9,336 nt of DNA from a virus (IMGVR_UViG_2734482772_000015:1-9336), one strand, 5' to 3'; positions 1 through 9,336 are shown, numbered from the stretch's first letter. Numbers and translations are program-made. Notes: a model not told the origin generated them from the sequence alone.

Positions 1-537
1 TTACTCGTCCAGCAGAATCACTTTGCCAATATACGGCAGATGACGGTAACGCTGTGCGTAATCAATGCCGTAACCCACCACAAACTCATCCGGGATCGAG
101 AAACCGATAAATTCTACCGGGACGTTCACTTCACGACGGGACGGTTTATCCAGCAGCGTACAAATCGCCAGCGACTTCGGTTCGCGCAGGCTTAAGATCT
201 CACGCACTTTCGACAGTGTATTCCCCGAGTCGATGATATCTTCAACAATCAGCACGTCCTTGCCACGGATATCTTCATCCAGATCTTTGAGGATTTTCAC
301 ATCACGGGTGGTGGACATGCCGCTACCGTAGCTGGAGGCGGTCATAAAGTCGACTTCATGAGATACCTGAACTTCACGGCACAGGTCCGCCATAAACATA
401 AATGAGCCACGCAGCAGACCCACCAGCACCATATCGCTGCCGCTGTCTTTGTAACGCTCAGTAATCTGACGACCCAGTTCGGCGATACGCGCTTTAATCT
501 CCGCTTCGGGGATCATTACTTCTACAATATGTTTCAT
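1..537 (-). CDS. hpt: hypoxanthine phosphoribosyltransferase
   Basis: 178-aa ORF with ATG at 535-537 and TAA at 1-3. The translation matches enterobacterial Hpt as I remember it almost residue for residue, including the PRPP-binding loop [14 protein letters not shown]. Confidence 0.95.
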
Positions 538-551
538 AAACTTTATATCCC

Positions 552-567
552 ACTGATTTTAATCAGT
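552..567. promoter_or_regulatory. perfect 7-bp inverted repeat ACTGATT-tt-AATCAGT in the hpt leader/promoter region
   Basis: Read directly from the sequence, 16-31 nt upstream of the hpt ATG. Function unknown; possibly a native operator or leader hairpin. Confidence 0.3.
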
Positions 568-790
568 TAAATTAACAAACACGCCATGCATTTTAGCTAA
601 AAGTGATACACCGAGTGATATACGGATTATTGCACAAAGCCGAAAATATGCGAAAGCATGAGCACGGTAGAAAGGCGGCGAGTATAACAGTATTAAAAAG
701 CAAATTATGAATCTCTTATTGTATGAGACATCTATCCCACAATAACCCATTATCAGCATCCCCACGCATCATGCCCACCAGCGTGAAGCA

Positions 791-876
791 TTTTTCGCGG
801 GTATAAAAAATCGATGGAGCGGGCAGTCCGGAAGACGTCAGGGTACAGAGATTTGACCCGCCCCTCCCTGTGCATG
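791..876. repeat. degenerate ~85-bp repeat, copy X1
   Basis: About 70% identical by eye to 1085-1165. Shared blocks: TTTC(g/a)CGGG, TAAAAAaTCGA, GGCGGGCA(g/c)TCC, GATTT, CCCCTCC, TG(c/a)ATG. Confidence 0.45.
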
Positions 877-890
877 AGCACAATAAGTAA

Positions 891-914
891 CCGAAGGCGG
901 AATTCCGCCCTCGG
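891..914 (-). terminator. GC-rich hairpin centred on GAATTC; possible minus-strand intrinsic terminator
   Basis: As minus-strand RNA, CCGAGGGCGG-AAUU-CCGCCUUCGG forms a 10-bp stem with one G-U pair and is followed by UUACUUAUU. The plus-strand version has an A-C mismatch, so the structure favours the minus strand. Confidence 0.35.
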
Positions 915-942
915 TACTCACATATGAGAAACGATATTTCTT

Positions 943-1060
943 CCACCGATACCCTTTATTTGGGTATCGCGAGTAAGCCCCAAAATCTGGGTGTTACTCT
1001 TACTACCCAAACTACGGGTAGTTTCCGTAGTTTCATAGTCGAGTTGCAGATCTGCAACTC
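943..1060. repeat. 118-bp direct repeat, copy A (three internal hairpins)
   Basis: Near-identical to 1379-1496 with about 5 mismatches. Contains hairpins GATACCC-tttattt-GGGTATC, AAACTACGG-gtagttt-CCGTAGTTT, and the perfect 20-bp palindrome GAGTTGCAGATCTGCAACTC. Confidence 0.8.
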
Positions 1061-1084
1061 GCTATCAGTCAGGGAAATTTTGTA

Positions 1085-1165
1085 ATTTCACGGGGGTAAA
1101 AATTCGAAGAGGCGGGCACTCCAAGAGATAAGAGACGGTAGGGATTTTGCTCCCCCTCCTGAATG
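1085..1165. repeat. degenerate ~85-bp repeat, copy X2
   Basis: Diverged copy of 791-876 (see there). Confidence 0.45.
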
Positions 1166-1175
1166 CAATTTTTCG

Positions 1176-1350
1176 TATATATATATACAAAACAGTGCGG
1201 GTTATGCGGGTTAGCGGGTTATCTTTGCGTGCTAAGTATTTTTTATTCTTTAATATCAATGCGTTGAAAAATGACACGTTCAAATGTTAGCCAAATCGTA
1301 ACCCGCAAGCCATTCAAAATAACCCGCAACCACCCCCAAATAACCCGCAA
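1176..1350. other. iteron-flanked AT-rich segment: candidate replication origin (alternative: recombinase arm-type binding sites)
   Basis: (TA)6 at 1179-1190. Three tandem 9-bp units GCGGGTTAT / GCGGGTTAG / CGGGTTAT at 1197-1222. A 76-bp AT-rich spacer at 1223-1298. Three inverted copies of ATAACCCGCAA at 1299, 1320 and 1341, spaced exactly 21 bp apart. Confidence 0.5.
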
Positions 1351-1378
1351 ACACATCAGGAAAATGGGGCCAGTGACG

Positions 1379-1496
1379 CCACCGATACCCTATATTTGGG
1401 TATCGCAAGTAAGCCCCAAAATCTGGGTGTTACTCTTACTACCCAAACTACGGGTAGTTTCCGTAGTTTCATGGTCGAGTTGCAAATCTGCAACTC
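1379..1496. repeat. 118-bp direct repeat, copy B
   Basis: Direct repeat of 943-1060. The terminal palindrome is imperfect here (GAGTTGCAAATCTGCAACTC), so the central GATC is lost. Confidence 0.8.
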
Positions 1497-1786
1497 ACCC
1501 ACCAGCCAACCCATTTTGGGGCTGTCGGAAATATCAACCAGTTACTGACAATGCTCTGGGCGTTCTGTCTAGCTGGTGGCTGTGGCTGGACGCTAATTTT
1601 TGCGTACCACTTTTGCGCACTTTTTCAGGGTCGGATTTCAGATCCCCACCATTCTGGGAGCAGTTGCAGGGGCCGAATAAATCAATAGCCGTGCTGGTAA
1701 CGTTTTGCATGACAAGTTTTGACAGTTTTTTATCTTCCGGCCTCCTCAAAATTGAGGATTGAAGAAAAGTCAATGGGTTAGGTCAT

Positions 1787-1827
1787 CGTGCAAATTTGCA
1801 CTATGCCAGCCAACGCAATTTTGCGTT
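1787..1827. promoter_or_regulatory. two related palindromes (operator-like)
   Basis: GTGCAAATTTGCAC at 1787-1800 and AACGCAATTTTGCGTT at 1812-1827 share the core GCAA(A/T)TTTGC and lie just downstream of the 96-aa ORF on the minus strand. Confidence 0.3.
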
Positions 1828-1845
1828 ATCGGGAATATCAGCAAG

Positions 1846-2136
1846 TTACCGCCGCAGTCGTTCCGGCTTCTTCCACTGGTAAGTATTTTTCGCGCTCTCC
1901 CTCCGTTGTTGAGAACGGCGACGGTATGCCAGCAACTCAAGGACTCTGGTTCGTATGTTGCGCATATCCACGCCGTTAAGCTCAATACCGTCACGGCGCA
2001 TCACCTCAGCCACCACACGCGCGTAATTTTCGGCTATCACGCTGTCCGGCTGTGTAGCCTGTTCGTCAGGCTGCTGACTGATTCCGGTAATGCGGCGAAT
2101 TATTTTTAGTAGATCAGTTTCAGTCATTCTCGTCAT
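1846..2136 (-). CDS. hypothetical 96-aa protein, translationally coupled to terL
   Basis: ATG at 2134-2136 overlaps the terL stop codon (ATGA). Charged, helical-looking composition, unlike the Cys/His-rich antisense ORF. No family recognised. Confidence 0.5.
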   Translation of the reverse strand: MTRMTETDLLKIIRRITGISQQPDEQATQPDSVIAENYARVVAEVMRRDGIELNGVDMRNIRTRVLELLAYRRRSQQRRESAKNTYQWKKPERLRR

Positions 2137-3794
2137 ACCCCATCAAACGCCGCAAGTCGCTTTTTGTGGCTGTCGCTCATATCAAATGCAAATTCCTCAT
2201 GCTCTGCCTGGAATGTGCCAAACGCCATCAGCGCCGCAACGCTCGGGTCTATCTTGTTGGATGATTTTTTCTTGTTCGGCTTGATATTGGCGTTCGCGTC
2301 ACTCTGCATCACAACATTACTCATTGACCAGGCCAGCACCGGATCACCACGATGCACAATCACCTTCCGGTTAACAAAAACTTCGAACGATTTCGCCGCC
2401 GGACTGAAACGAAGGTATGTTTGCGGGAACGGCTCCACTTCTAATCCTGCCCCCTGTAGCTGCGTCCTCAGGTGCGTGGCGTTCCATGTATCGAAGCCCA
2501 CCAGCCTGATATTGAAATTCTCTGCATCCGCCATGATGTCATCACGGATACGGTCATAATCAATGCAGTCACCCGGTGTTGTGCGTATCCAGCCCGCCTT
2601 TACCCACTGGCGATAGATGGCGCGGTTTTTATTGGCGGGGTTCTGTAGCTGAAATTCCGGCAGATAGTGACGGGAAACCAGCATAATCTTTTTACCGACC
2701 GGAAAGGCATAGCACACGCTGGAAATATCGCTGGTTGATGATAAGTCCAGCCCCGCGTAGCACTCCTGCCCGTATAAATCCGCCTCCGCGAACGTTCCGG
2801 CGCACTCCGTCCATGCACCGTTACCCATCCACGGCGTAGCCCCCTGACACCAGATATTGAATCGCTTGGTGAGCATTTCCACCCACTGCGACGGAATACC
2901 CCGCGCTTTCTGGATGGTTGAGGCCAGTTTTTCACGATCGACGGAAACATCGATATTTGGATTCGCCTTTATCCACATCGCCGGATCGTCAACCTCGCTT
3001 TCATCATCCAGCTCGTAAATCAGAACGAACATGGATTCGTTCATCTCTTCACCATCCAGTATCTGACAGCAATAGTCATAGTGTTGTTTACAGGCTGAAA
3101 CAACGTTGCTCCCCGATGTGGTAATGGCAAATAACAGCCCCTCCGGACGCGCCCCCATCCCCAGCTCAAGTGCGGAATAAACCCCGTTGTCTGGGTGCAG
3201 GTGATATTCATCCACAATGGCAAGACTCGGGTTTGTCCCCTCAATGGTTGCCGCTTTTGCTGCCAGTGGCTTTAACAGGCTGTTGGTTTTCGGGTGTATC
3301 ACCTTGTGCGCCTGAATATTTACCCGCTTTCGTAACGGTCGGGATAAAAGGCACATCTGACGCGCATCATCAAACACGATCCGCGCCTGATCACGACTCA
3401 CGGCGGCGGTGTAAATATCCTGCTGCCCGTTTTCCATAACCAGAAACCAGTTAGCCAGGATAGCGGCGACCGTGGATTTGGCATTTTTTCGCGGTACTTC
3501 AATGAATGCGCTGGTGTATTTGCGCCGTCCGGTGGCCTTAACCTTAAAGCCCAGGATGCACGCAAAGGCGAACTGCTGCCACGGCTCCAGCTCAATGGGG
3601 CTACCACGCATTGCGCCTTTTACGTGCGGACACACCCTGGAAAAGGCAATAAACCGCTCAACGACCTCCGGATCGAACGTGTAAAGGGGGTTTTCAAGGT
3701 CAGAAAAATACCGTTTAACGGCCTGTTTCAGTCGTTTACAGGCCGTAATTTTGCCGTTTTTTACGCCTTCTGCGTACTCATGCCAGGCAGTCAA
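2133..3794 (-). CDS. phage terminase large subunit
   Basis: 553 aa with the overall layout of a phage terminase large subunit, including an N-terminal ATPase region with a Walker-A-like PRKNAKST. The start codon is TTG at 3792-3794, preceded by the SD-like GAGGAAGAGGA. No in-frame ATG occurs until about residue 62. Confidence 0.88.
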   Translation of the reverse strand: MTAWHEYAEGVKNGKITACKRLKQAVKRYFSDLENPLYTFDPEVVERFIAFSRVCPHVKGAMRGSPIELEPWQQFAFACILGFKVKATGRRKYTSAFIEVPRKNAKSTVAAILANWFLVMENGQQDIYTAAVSRDQARIVFDDARQMCLLSRPLRKRVNIQAHKVIHPKTNSLLKPLAAKAATIEGTNPSLAIVDEYHLHPDNGVYSALELGMGARPEGLLFAITTSGSNVVSACKQHYDYCCQILDGEEMNESMFVLIYELDDESEVDDPAMWIKANPNIDVSVDREKLASTIQKARGIPSQWVEMLTKRFNIWCQGATPWMGNGAWTECAGTFAEADLYGQECYAGLDLSSTSDISSVCYAFPVGKKIMLVSRHYLPEFQLQNPANKNRAIYRQWVKAGWIRTTPGDCIDYDRIRDDIMADAENFNIRLVGFDTWNATHLRTQLQGAGLEVEPFPQTYLRFSPAAKSFEVFVNRKVIVHRGDPVLAWSMSNVVMQSDANANIKPNKKKSSNKIDPSVAALMAFGTFQAEHEEFAFDMSDSHKKRLAAFDGV

Positions 3795-5165: not shown

Positions 5166-6372
5166 CTTTTTCACCTTTAATTTCCACAGTCTGCTTCCAT
5201 GCCTGGCTGAACTCGTCACCCCCTTCACGCGGCGGCATACCCTCACGCTCACGGGCTTCGTTCGGATTCATGATCCCGTTCTTAATCCCTTTCTCATACG
5301 TGGCATAACGTTCGGTGGGTGTGGCGCGTAATAAATCGGCTGAATCAAACTCAACCAGATAACGGGTACCAGGTACGGGAGAAGCCACCAGCAAAGCGGC
5401 CTTGATTTGCTGTTCGAAGTTCGCCAGCCATGGGCGCATTGTCATGGTCAGAAACGCGCGGCTTGCCTCGCTGAAATTGCTGTAGGTGCTGTTGCTGTAT
5501 TCCTGCAGAAAAATAGGCGATACGTTGAACATGCGGGCGATGTCTTCAATGGAGAAGCGACGGGAGGCCAGCCATTCCGCATCCTGGTTACTCATTCCCA
5601 GTTGCTTGTAATCCATGCCCCCTTCAAGGATTGGCGTTTTTCCGGCATTTTTCGCCCCCTTGTAGCGTTCCAGAGCATCTAATGCCTGTTTACCTTTCAC
5701 GCCGTCCAGCCATTCGCCTGACGTGATAATCCCTGCCGCCATCATGCCATCTTTCATAATGCTGGCTCCGTGGCGCTGTTGAGCAAGGCCAAGCCCAAGC
5801 GCCTCACGGCAAATCGTGACAGGGGAACGCCCCAGAAAGCCATCATCCGAGGCATAGCGGAGATGCAGAACTTCTTCCTGTAAATACGTGCGCACCGTTC
5901 CTGTATAGGGTTCGGTGATGGTATAGCGGTATTTGTGTGCGCCTGTGCGTTCCGGTACAACACACCCCGGCGCATAAGGATGAAGTGATTTTGGCTGCCC
6001 GTCTTGCCCCCACTCAATAACCGCATAGGCGTTACCGTTCAGCAGGCAGTGACGCATCATTGTGCGTTTAAACTGGTAAGGTGTCTGGCACGAATTAGGC
6101 TGCTCATTCAGCAGAATATCTACCGGGTGACTGTCCAGCCATTCCCGCGCCTCCCTGCCCTTGTCATTACGTACCAGATACAGATAACACGGCATCGTGG
6201 CCACCGCCTCAGCGATGACAGAAACCGCGTTCATCACTGCAGGCAATGATTCAGCCGTCCCGGCAGAAACATATTCTCCGGATCCGGTATTCGGTACGCC
6301 GGACAGCGCCAGAAAATCATCAATGGACAGGTTACGCTGCTCGCTTTTTTTACGACTAAAAGGCCACCACAT
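5158..6372 (-). CDS. phage portal protein (HK97 family)
   Basis: About 404 aa from the ATG at 6370-6372, which lies 1 nt after the protease stop. Size and position fit a portal. The track's longer start at 6462 is a TTG and was not preferred. Confidence 0.88.
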   Translation of the reverse strand: MWWPFSRKKSEQRNLSIDDFLALSGVPNTGSGEYVSAGTAESLPAVMNAVSVIAEAVATMPCYLYLVRNDKGREAREWLDSHPVDILLNEQPNSCQTPYQFKRTMMRHCLLNGNAYAVIEWGQDGQPKSLHPYAPGCVVPERTGAHKYRYTITEPYTGTVRTYLQEEVLHLRYASDDGFLGRSPVTICREALGLGLAQQRHGASIMKDGMMAAGIITSGEWLDGVKGKQALDALERYKGAKNAGKTPILEGGMDYKQLGMSNQDAEWLASRRFSIEDIARMFNVSPIFLQEYSNSTYSNFSEASRAFLTMTMRPWLANFEQQIKAALLVASPVPGTRYLVEFDSADLLRATPTERYATYEKGIKNGIMNPNEAREREGMPPREGGDEFSQAWKQTVEIKGEKDE

Positions 6373-9094: not shown

Positions 9095-9336
9095 GCTGTC
9101 TGCTCTCCGGTTTTAACGTTGATGGTTGTCACCTGTTCCGCTTCGGCAATCTCCCGTTCTGTCAGCGTGGCAAAGTTTGCAGCTGCCGTTGTCATGAATG
9201 AGCTAATCAGTTCGGGATGTGCTTTCGCATATCCTTCCCCGGCGTTGCGGTCGATGATTTTTATCGACACCCTTAACCAGTGTTCCGTCAAATCAAGGGC
9301 GTGCGATTGTGATTTTTTTGTGTGCTTCGCTGTCAT
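9091..9336 (-). CDS. hypothetical 81-aa protein (start coincides with window edge; may extend upstream)
   Basis: The ORF begins at an ATG at 9334-9336 and is translationally coupled to ssb. No family recognised. The true start cannot be verified because the window ends here. Confidence 0.4.
   Translation of the reverse strand: MTAKHTKKSQSHALDLTEHWLRVSIKIIDRNAGEGYAKAHPELISSFMTTAAANFATLTEREIAEAEQVTTINVKTGEQTA

Follow-up and report, generated by a model that had tools for sequence, protein, structure and literature searches.

What is the nature of two nearly identical, hairpin-rich sequences of 118 nt that lie 436 bp apart, counted from start to start, in viral DNA, and why are there two of them? 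The question is raised by a stretch of 9,336 nucleotides (hereafter the window, that is, the whole of the DNA analysed), in which the two sequences had been noticed in a reading made from the sequence alone. A repeat search of the window recovers them as one family of direct repeats with two copies, A and B (Table 1), and direct comparison of the bases confirms that the pair is real. A repeat of 118 nt cannot arise by chance in 9.3 kb. The two copies are identical in 114 of the 118 positions, so that the number of differences, given earlier as about five, is four by direct count (unit positions 14, T/A; 29, G/A; 95, A/G; and 107, G/A).

Folding yields four hairpins per copy on either strand, one more than the three strong hairpins of the sequence-only reading. 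As single-stranded DNA, the copies fold at -27.5 to -31.5 kcal/mol compared with -9 to -11 kcal/mol for shuffled sequences (z-scores of -7.0 to -9.6, with none of the 200 shuffles equalling the native value), and copy A folded as RNA, with 8-10 nt of flanking sequence on each side, reaches -55.4 on the plus strand and -58.5 on the minus strand (z-scores of -7.8 and -8.4, respectively). The first hairpin has the form CGATACCC-N7-GGGTATCG. The last one is, as the sequence-only reading had it, a 20-bp palindrome, which is perfect in copy A (GAGTTGCAGATCTGCAACTC, positions 1041-1060), with 8-bp arms around GATC or, equivalently, 7-bp arms around AGATCT; in copy B, the corresponding sequence is GAGTTGCAAATCTGCAACTC (1477-1496), where the centre is GCAAATCTGC and the central GATC is indeed gone. 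No family of Rfam 15 matches the unit at the gathering threshold, and at a relaxed E-value, the search returns only matches at the level of chance (E of 6.5-9.9).

The variation of the unit was assessed among copies with flanking sequence, which were gathered by pattern scans of IMG/VR and metagenomes and comprise 135 copies with 40 sequence variants, all of them about 92% identical or more. The loop of the first hairpin is the sole hypervariable stretch of the unit. In the first helix, two pairs are altered on both sides, C-G to U-A in four variants and A-U to C-G in two, and intermediates with a single change exist; the other stems and most of the loops and linkers are nearly invariant among the variants. 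Over 41 variants, 98.5% of the cells are paired. The changes that affect one side only include about eight events that are compatible with a G-U pair on the minus strand only and about four, among them the frequent A54G, for which this holds on the plus strand only. A resemblance to boxA/boxB (nut-like) sequences, seen by eye on the plus strand in the G54 variant only, was judged to be coincidental.

Comparison with matching E. coli records establishes that the window is the end, remote from the integrase gene, of a capsid-forming phage-inducible chromosomal island (cf-PICI) whose insertion site is the 5' end of hpt. Beyond hpt, the matching islands carry, on the minus strand, genes for SSB, the HK97 major capsid protein, prohead protease, portal, head-tail connector, HNH, TerS (P27 family), TerL and a small hypothetical protein. 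The element is found entire in strain KSC9, where it spans 16 kb between hpt and gcd and further on encodes a DUF927 primase, DUF4222, an Icd-like protein, regulators and a tyrosine integrase; islands of this kind have an SSB and a primase of their own. Capsid-forming PICIs with the same set of genes are described in bioRxiv 10.1101/2022.09.08.507074, a paper that is silent on the non-coding end considered here. When the window is aligned with the two ends of the KSC9 island and with the unoccupied hpt-gcd site of K-12, the sequence that they share is the att core CTTCTACARTATGTTTCATA, which can be written as CTTCTACA(A/G)TATGTTTCATA, and its second copy in KSC9 adjoins the integrase gene. The island arm next to the att core (538-765) is rare, being present in no more than about a dozen genomes, with 80% or greater coverage of positions 538-1000 in only 12 of the 5426 complete E. 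coli genomes, and in islands at other sites, homology to the window starts only from position 766, 789, 871, 886, 895, or exactly 943, the first base of the unit.

Table 1. Features of the window around the two repeat units (positions counted from the first nucleotide of the window; a strand is given where one is assigned)
Feature	Position	Strand	Basis
hpt, hypoxanthine phosphoribosyltransferase, chromosomal neighbour of the island	1-537	-	Annotation of matching E. coli records; 99.6% identical to K-12
att core CTTCTACAATATGTTTCATA, overlaps the hpt start codon	519-538		Found once in the empty K-12 site and at both KSC9 island ends
Island arm specific to hpt insertions, replaces the native upstream region of hpt	539-765		Genome coverage comparison
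cos1, phiP27/SfV/SfII type; cosN-like decamer GGAGCGGGCA at 816-825	789-868		Homology to phage cos
Terminator-like hairpin ACCGAGGGCGGAATTCCGCCTTCGGT then TACTTATTGT	890-915	- (late-operon strand)	Terminator scan: 11 pairs, 8 of them G-C, loop of 4
Unit copy A, four hairpins	943-1060	- (late-operon strand)	Repeat search, folding, base comparison
Junction: degenerate right flank GCTATCAGT... (cf. GCCACCAGT), joined to the cos2 block at ATTTT microhomology	1061-1084		Limits of homology
cos2, second cos-like segment; decamer GAGGCGGGCA at 1109-1118	1085-1165		Aligns with cos1 and with the cos of L005, JP538 and phiP27
Satellite replication origin	1166-1378		Iterons, IHF-consensus site, homology to L005 segment
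Unit copy B, four hairpins, central GATC gone	1379-1496	-	Repeat search, folding, base comparison
Chi GCTGGTGG, 2 nt after copy B	1499-1506	-	Sequence match
Tail module copy 1 of the 44-bp repeat (IHF-consensus box and short palindrome)	1502-1545	-	80% identical to 1806-1849; IHF core at 1532-1544
Tail module copy 2, overlaps the stop codon of the last late gene	1806-1849	-	Repeat search, module comparison
Last gene of the late/packaging operon, 96-aa protein, phrog_1561, constant upstream neighbour of the unit	1846-2136	-	Gene and family assignment, neighbourhood survey
Terminase large subunit of the capsid-forming satellite	2133-3794	-	Annotation of matching records

The position of the att core bears directly on the suggestion of the sequence-only reading that the repeats are tandem att sites. 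The unit begins 400 bp inside the island, away from the core, and the far end of the element, where a further copy was to be sought, has none: the integrase end of the KSC9 island is free of the unit. Placement of the att core outside the repeats is the very outcome that the earlier reading had named as speaking against its proposal, and by these alignments, the unit is not an att site, the att reading being refuted.

The unit is nevertheless far from being confined to this island. The copy-number survey that had been called for finds it in 665 of the 5426 complete E. coli genomes, at 755 places (median of 1 and maximum of 6 places per genome), and in every one of these genomes, it is unannotated. 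Every context inspected is a satellite, so that the family of repeated elements that had been envisaged does exist but is restricted to phage satellites. With 1-6 places per genome, presence in 12% of the genomes and contexts next to phrog_1561, the pattern is not one of REP-, ERIC- or MITE-type dispersal in the core genome. The similarity opens at CCACCGAT and closes at TGCAACTC in every context, with both borders sharp, and the flanks of the 135 copies fall into only five left and about 10 right types that are otherwise unrelated.

The unit is carried by at least four types of satellites, which differ in insertion site, cos region and replication genes: cf-PICIs that encode terminase and capsid themselves, such as those of the window and KSC9; classical PICIs with a TerS-like gene along with capsid and decoration genes, inserted beside clpS (locus L005); a PICI similar to that of L005 but located near narP (L004); and, in O157:H7, a satellite that resides inside a prophage terminase gene (L238). 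The unit is unchanged in the satellites of the latter three locations, contrary to the notion of a core specific to a single island site. The replication proteins encoded alongside it differ as well, including a DUF927 primase, a ‘DNA primase family' protein and a primase-like protein. Searches for homologues of the unit in phages and plasmids find none except for a 20-mer within KilA-N genes, comparison with phage cos regions reveals no homology, the sequence strings of the unit have no match in the searchable literature, and the papers searched do not mention a 118-bp unit.

The constant neighbour of the unit is the gene of the phrog_1561 family, which ends 46-527 nt, mostly 49-52 nt, upstream of it on the same strand in 72 of the 76 copies. 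When loci with enough downstream sequence are sampled by the phrog_1561 protein only, 21 of the 48 contain the unit, always in the same orientation, and a profile search (nhmmer) detects no diverged copy in the remaining 27, which indicates that the unit is optional and dispensable. It is also extremely well conserved: in L004, the unit stays 95.8% identical while the phrog_1561 DNA there is only about 81-82% identical. Across the islands, the phrog_1561 protein is 70-100% identical, and the DNA identity is about 81-82% also in JP538 and AST20. The protein has neither a Pfam family nor a PDB sequence match; its AF2 model consists of four helices with a basic C-terminus (pLDDT of 69), for which Foldseek returns nothing with an E-value below 1. 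A search with one genome per species yields a single Shigella locus, which lacks the unit, and the family is apparently limited to Escherichia and Shigella, with a few Salmonella entries. Together, these genome comparisons establish the unit as a discrete, optional, very conserved non-coding cassette of E. coli and Shigella phage satellites; it is an undescribed conserved structured cassette.

The gene of phrog_1561 is the last one of the late operon, and on the operon strand, the unit lies between its stop codon and a terminator-like hairpin in both common flank contexts: in islands of the L004 type, a hairpin with a U tract that is unrelated to the one in the window directly abuts the unit in the same place. 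For copy A, such a 3'-UTR position between stop codon and terminator is valid only with read-through of the origin described below. The tail of the operon is mosaic. The 44-bp repeat of the window consists of two tail modules around a 260-bp insert, and modules of this type recur 3' of phrog_1561 in other islands as arrays of one to eight, about 45-50 nt each, with a common anatomy, namely, a box TAAC..TGATATTYYCG, the reverse complement of which fits the IHF core WATCAANNNNTTR, a short palindrome that differs between modules, and GGCYGG, sometimes in the form of Chi. The unit is one larger optional cassette within this mosaic tail, and the Chi sequence CCACCAGC follows it in 72 of the 135 copies.

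What lies between the two copies had been described as an iteron segment bracketed by the repeats. The iterons are real, but a second cos-like site is found inside the segment, too. The first site, cos1, precedes copy A and shares 81-95% identity with the cos regions of SfII, SfV, SfIV, SfI, ST64B and phiP27; its decamer lines up with the 10-nt cos-site annotated in phiP27, and in SfI, SfV and SfIV, the matching regions abut the genome ends. The decamer of cos2 is 293 bp away from that of cos1, in the same orientation. The origin that follows cos2 contains two sets of iterons, GCGGGTTA three times at 1197-1221 and TAACCCGCA three times at 1299, 1320 and 1341 (to 1349), with a spacing of 21 bp, and, between the sets, an A+T-rich stretch that holds an IHF-consensus site at 1254-1266. 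Origins of PICIs consist of two iteron sets around an A+T-rich region (PMC6092414), and these features are present in 1166-1378 and missing in the units; the iterons occur only at 1197-1221 and 1299-1349 and in neither copy of the unit.

The origin shares 83.5% identity with the segment that immediately follows the DUF927 primase gene of L005 (L005 13313-13474), and the same type of origin is located just 3' of the primase gene in the islands with a single unit, L005, L013, L033 and L146; the position after the primase or rep gene is the canonical place of the PICI origin (PMC6092414). In KSC9, the only origin is the one between the units. The full origin segment is detected in 160 genomes and at 95% identity or more in only 13, and in most islands, there is a single unit, about 4 kb from the origin.

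Positions 1078-1385 of the window are 88% identical to a contiguous cos and origin block of the JP538 cf-PICI (at yifB), which lacks the unit, and the block holds the only cos-like segment identified at that locus; the last bases of the match, CCACCGA, are also the first seven of copy B. On the other side, homology to L005 reaches position 1082 and homology to JP538 begins at 1078. The two copies resemble different relatives. Copy A is 100% identical to the single units of L042, L038, L037, L028 and L020, all of which have the right flank GCCACCAGT; to the right of copy A itself stands GCTATCAGT, a degenerate version of this flank. Copy B agrees with b-flank single units, such as that of L035, in its right-hand variants and in the flank ACCCACCAGCC, which includes Chi. 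There are two copies here because a block with a cos-like site and an iteron origin sits between units of different lineages, and since copies A and B come from different lineages, the repeat would be a product of modular recombination rather than local duplication. Such recombination would have joined the cos1-terminator-unit part of one island type to the cos2-origin part of another, with its own unit, at short homologies, Chi-like CCAYCAG or ATTTT on one side and CCACCGA on the other. The arrangement, then, appears to stem from modular recombination between satellites, being neither an in-place duplication nor an att pair. The idea of a remnant of a second element, raised by the sequence-only reading, has a real counterpart in this scheme, because the DNA between the copies is a cos-like site with an origin of the kind found in another cf-PICI.

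With respect to function, the reading that we favour, tentatively and with less than even confidence, is that of a cis-acting structured RNA in the 3' UTR of the late operon. Under this candidate role, the unit would be transcribed on the minus strand within the 3' untranslated region, its four stem-loops, placed directly ahead of the terminator, would make up a stable 3' domain, and this domain might protect or process the late transcript or give rise to a stable 3'-derived small RNA. The RNA reading is preferred on account of the fixed place of the unit between the last stop codon and the terminator in two unrelated contexts, along with its fixed orientation and a conservation that exceeds that of the gene. 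Several observations weigh against it. The near-invariance of stems, loops and linkers alike fits sequence-specific recognition by a protein equally well; the one-sided changes single out neither strand; no Rfam family matches; with the origin and cos2 interposed between the gene and copy A, an RNA role of this copy requires about 320 nt of read-through across the origin; and satellites that have phrog_1561 but lack the unit are common (27 of the 48 loci). The best explanation as a whole, a satellite cassette present twice through modular recombination and with a putative role as a cis-acting RNA, falls just short of an even chance in our estimation.

Among the alternatives, a DNA-level site near the end of the packaged genome, which would aid replication or concatemer processing, is unlikely but carries appreciable weight. 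It could be an array of inverted repeats bound by a protein, comprising three YACCC-N7-GGGTR motifs and the 20-bp palindrome, or a single-strand initiation or priming signal with hairpins extruded on the strand displaced in rolling-circle replication. Almost all of the 118 bp are invariant, including most loops and linkers, the changes in the first helix are symmetric, as expected of a dimer site with a free spacer, and both strands fold equally well, all of which is compatible with such a site, as are the SSB and primase genes of the islands, the copies on both sides of the origin in this lineage, and the distance of 118-235 bp between the unit and the cos1 decamer, on the side packaged last. 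However, the unit occurs alongside different replication proteins, origins and cos types, so that no single island protein obviously matches it, the origin iteron is absent from it, related islands do without it, and a DNA site would have no reason to be placed on the gene side of the terminator-like hairpin in both common contexts. A functionless passenger in a recombination-prone mosaic tail, kept similar by exchange or gene conversion among co-resident satellites, is a distinctly unlikely explanation, even if the setting suits it: the tail 3' of phrog_1561 is a variable array of shuffled modules, the unit is optional (21 of 48 loci), Chi adjoins it, up to six copies coexist in a genome, and the variants that a unit carries go with the flank next to them, which implies crossovers inside the unit. 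What a passenger leaves unexplained is the identity of at least 92% despite unalignable flanks and a neighbouring gene that is about 80% identical, the sharp borders, which are alike in every context, the compensatory changes that preserve the helix, and folding z-scores more extreme than expected of neutral DNA.

Other interpretations fare worse. That the unit encodes a small protein, or is an independent sRNA gene expressed from a promoter of its own, is highly improbable. Four of the six frames are open or nearly so across the unit, and in two unrelated contexts, an ATG in the same frame lies immediately beyond the left border; the candidate ORFs are one of 26 codons on the minus strand, MKLRKLPVVWVVRVTPRFWGLLAIPK, and one on the plus strand that starts in the left flank. 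Yet there is no Shine-Dalgarno sequence, the 26-codon ORF ends within the hypervariable loop, at a stop codon that many variants, copy B among them, have lost, and with synonymous to non-synonymous changes of 15/17, 13/21, 12/24 and 12/23 in the four frames, no frame stands out; as for an sRNA gene, the units and the sequences next to them contain no promoter-like site, and different contexts have unrelated flanks. The chance that the unit is a regulatory RNA or a sensor site of the satellite that addresses the helper phage is very slim. Here, the satellite transcript would pair with KilA-N mRNAs over 20 nt, or one phage protein would bind both sites: the 20-nt self-complementary sequence of the unit is the same as, or one base off, a conserved stretch, coding for (S/T)ELQICNS, in the KilA-N domain (antirepressor-like) genes of SfII, Stx2a and related phages, and the phage contigs with this gene often share the cos type of the satellite. 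Least credible of all is a tyrosine-recombinase core in the palindrome, with the units serving as tandem att or cassette-recombination sites. The recombinase-core shape that the sequence-only reading pointed out is there, in the sense of two inverted arms around a short centre, and a cos2 and origin block between direct copies is what a site-specific or Campbell-type insertion would leave. But the centre varies between G and A in many copies and no crossover maps to it: one junction of the block, at 1078-1082, is 18-22 bp past the palindrome, and the other, CCACCGA, comprises the first 7 nt of copy B, at the end opposite the palindrome. The att core at 519-538 and at the integrase end, where the unit is absent, and the presence of the unit in islands with other insertion sites tell against this reading as well.

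Among enterobacteria, PICIs and cf-PICIs serve as major vehicles of gene transfer; dissection has covered the proteins of these islands and not the non-coding ends. At such an end, a strongly constrained, structured cassette of 118 bp is present in about one-eighth of E. coli genomes, is better conserved than the adjacent gene and is described neither in Rfam nor in the searchable literature. The locus further exposes a satellite lineage in which the origin has moved from the canonical place after rep and is fused to a second cos-like site, and a satellite tail that is a shuffling array of modules, each with an IHF-type box and a palindrome, in which Chi is oriented for entry from the cos end. 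Should the unit be a cis-acting RNA or a site of replication or packaging, it would represent a new control element of satellites and a marker for finding them; should it be only a passenger, the locus would be an ordinary mosaic junction.

In gene order and content, from int through TerS and TerL, the island resembles both cf-PICIs, such as EcCIEDL933, and classical E. coli PICIs, such as EcCICFT073, and it shares with PICIs the two iteron sets around an A+T-rich region (PMC6092414). EcCICFT073 provides a precedent for two cos sites in one island (PMC6092414, PMC6739421), and of the P4 replication elements, PMC6092414 mentions only ori/crr. It differs from the PICIs in that the origin is away from the rep gene and joined to a cos-like site at the island's far end.

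The crr (cis replication region) of satellite P4 is a pair of direct repeats, each about 120 bp long, that act together with ori, and it functions by carrying the same octamers, bound by the alpha protein, that are present in ori. The parallel is that here, too, two direct repeats of about 120 bp lie near the origin of a satellite replicon driven by a primase-helicase. Unlike crr, however, the unit does not contain the origin iteron TAACCCGCA, is mostly single and some 4 kb off the origin, and is accompanied by varied replication proteins. The att sites of the lambda type and the cores of tyrosine recombinases resemble the palindrome in having inverted arms around a short centre, but the unit is off the junction of the element with the chromosome, does not occur at the other end and is not tied to one integrase. 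REP/BIME extragenic palindromic repeats, including the IHF-containing BIME-1/RIP, stabilise the upstream mRNA when located in 3' UTRs. Unlike them, the unit is not distributed genome-wide, is longer (118 bp, with four different hairpins) and has no sequence similarity to REP; like them, it is hairpin-rich, repeated and intergenic, between a stop codon and a terminator, and the tail modules around it are reminiscent of BIME-1/RIP in pairing an IHF-consensus box with a palindrome.

Copy A of the unit, the 118-bp four-hairpin non-coding cassette, lies between two cosN-like decamers of the same orientation, spaced by 293 bp, one in each of the two cos-like segments, cos1 and cos2 (see the table). 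If both decamers were cut, copy A would be missing from the packaged progeny. In the available sequence of L023, an island of the unit-origin-unit type, cos1 was not seen, so the functional site in this case may be cos2. The cos-side copy of the unit in this island is truncated (unit positions 34-118) and borders unrelated DNA. In L238 (O157:H7 strain 146N4), the match to the window begins only at 871, and the SfV-type cos1 homology is absent from the match; this satellite, located inside a prophage terminase gpA gene, terminates in phrog_1561 (the last late-operon gene), the unit and the terminator-like hairpin. The window also contains a strong excess of Chi sites with an orientation bias (9 versus 2). 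By reasoning from their orientation, the nine would be active for RecBCD going from the cos end into the island, and one of these is 2 nt past copy B.

Positions of features in the window or, where a locus is named, in that locus
Feature	Sequence	Position	Remark
cosN-like decamer	GGAGCGGGCA	816-825	same orientation as decamer at 1109-1118
cosN-like decamer	GAGGCGGGCA	1109-1118	same orientation as decamer at 816-825
Chi	CCACCAGC	420, 775, 1499, 2498, 5385, 6619, 6871, 7695, 9058	9 sites
Chi	GCTGGTGG	1572, 9032	opposite orientation, 2 sites
IHF core consensus	TATCAATGCGTTG	1254-1266	perfect
Tail modules		1502-1545, 1806-1849
Unit palindrome, 20 nt		1041-1060, 1477-1496
Terminator-like hairpin		890-915 (-)
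att core and island DNA upstream of hpt		519-765
Promoter-like sites		777-749, 654-626	hpt strand, weak, predicted
Truncated cos-side unit, L023		9996-10080
Palindrome remnant, L131	TTTCATAGCC...ACCCACCA	~5440-5530
Hairpin, L004	ACCGAAGGCGGAA.TTCGCC..	9119-9160

The perfect IHF core match occupies the A+T-rich center of the origin. Past the end of the last late gene, the non-coding tail consists of arrayed ~45-50-nt modules, in the window as well as downstream of phrog_1561 in L248-L316, with one to ~8 modules per island. Each module consists of the box TAAC..TGATATTYYCG, which matches the IHF core on the opposite strand, followed by a short palindrome that differs from module to module and then by GGCYGG.

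The unit itself varies among islands. Five loci (L207, L165, L126, L157 and L149) carry a variant from which 9 bp (CCGTAGTTT) are missing, namely one of the copies of a short direct repeat inside the unit; with this loss, one arm of the third hairpin of the minus-strand fold is gone, and the alternative hairpin CTACCC-N7-GGGTAG is unaffected. Locus L131, where only the palindrome and its immediate flanks are found, adjoining a different iteron array (ATACATGCTGCA, four copies), is a truncated unit next to another origin type. In islands of the L004 type (L004 is a PICI near narP), a hairpin resembling the terminator-like hairpin of the window sits on the opposite side of the unit, and comparison of L004 with the Shigella locus L171 reveals the unit and the hairpin as a single insertion of ~160 bp in L004.

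The palindrome is found also within KilA-N domain genes of temperate phages (SfII, Stx2a_1447, 2H10, Kati, YeP1-3 and Pmp14, along with L043, L046 and L057), where it encodes (S/T)ELQICNS. In two diverged KilA-N genes, the 20-mer differs at just one base, and a cos1-type cos is often present on phage contigs that carry this gene. Because the BLAST E-value of the match is only 0.03, this sharing could reflect chance or an old fragment.

At the junction with hpt, the att core shares bases with the start codon of this gene, so the native sequence upstream of hpt is replaced by island DNA. Two weak promoter-like sites are predicted within the island DNA on the hpt strand. The same att site is used by another cf-PICI, L168 of strain AST20, which is devoid of the 118-bp unit, has a different tail, and carries a RepA-type helicase, an SSB and a ProQ/FinO family gene.
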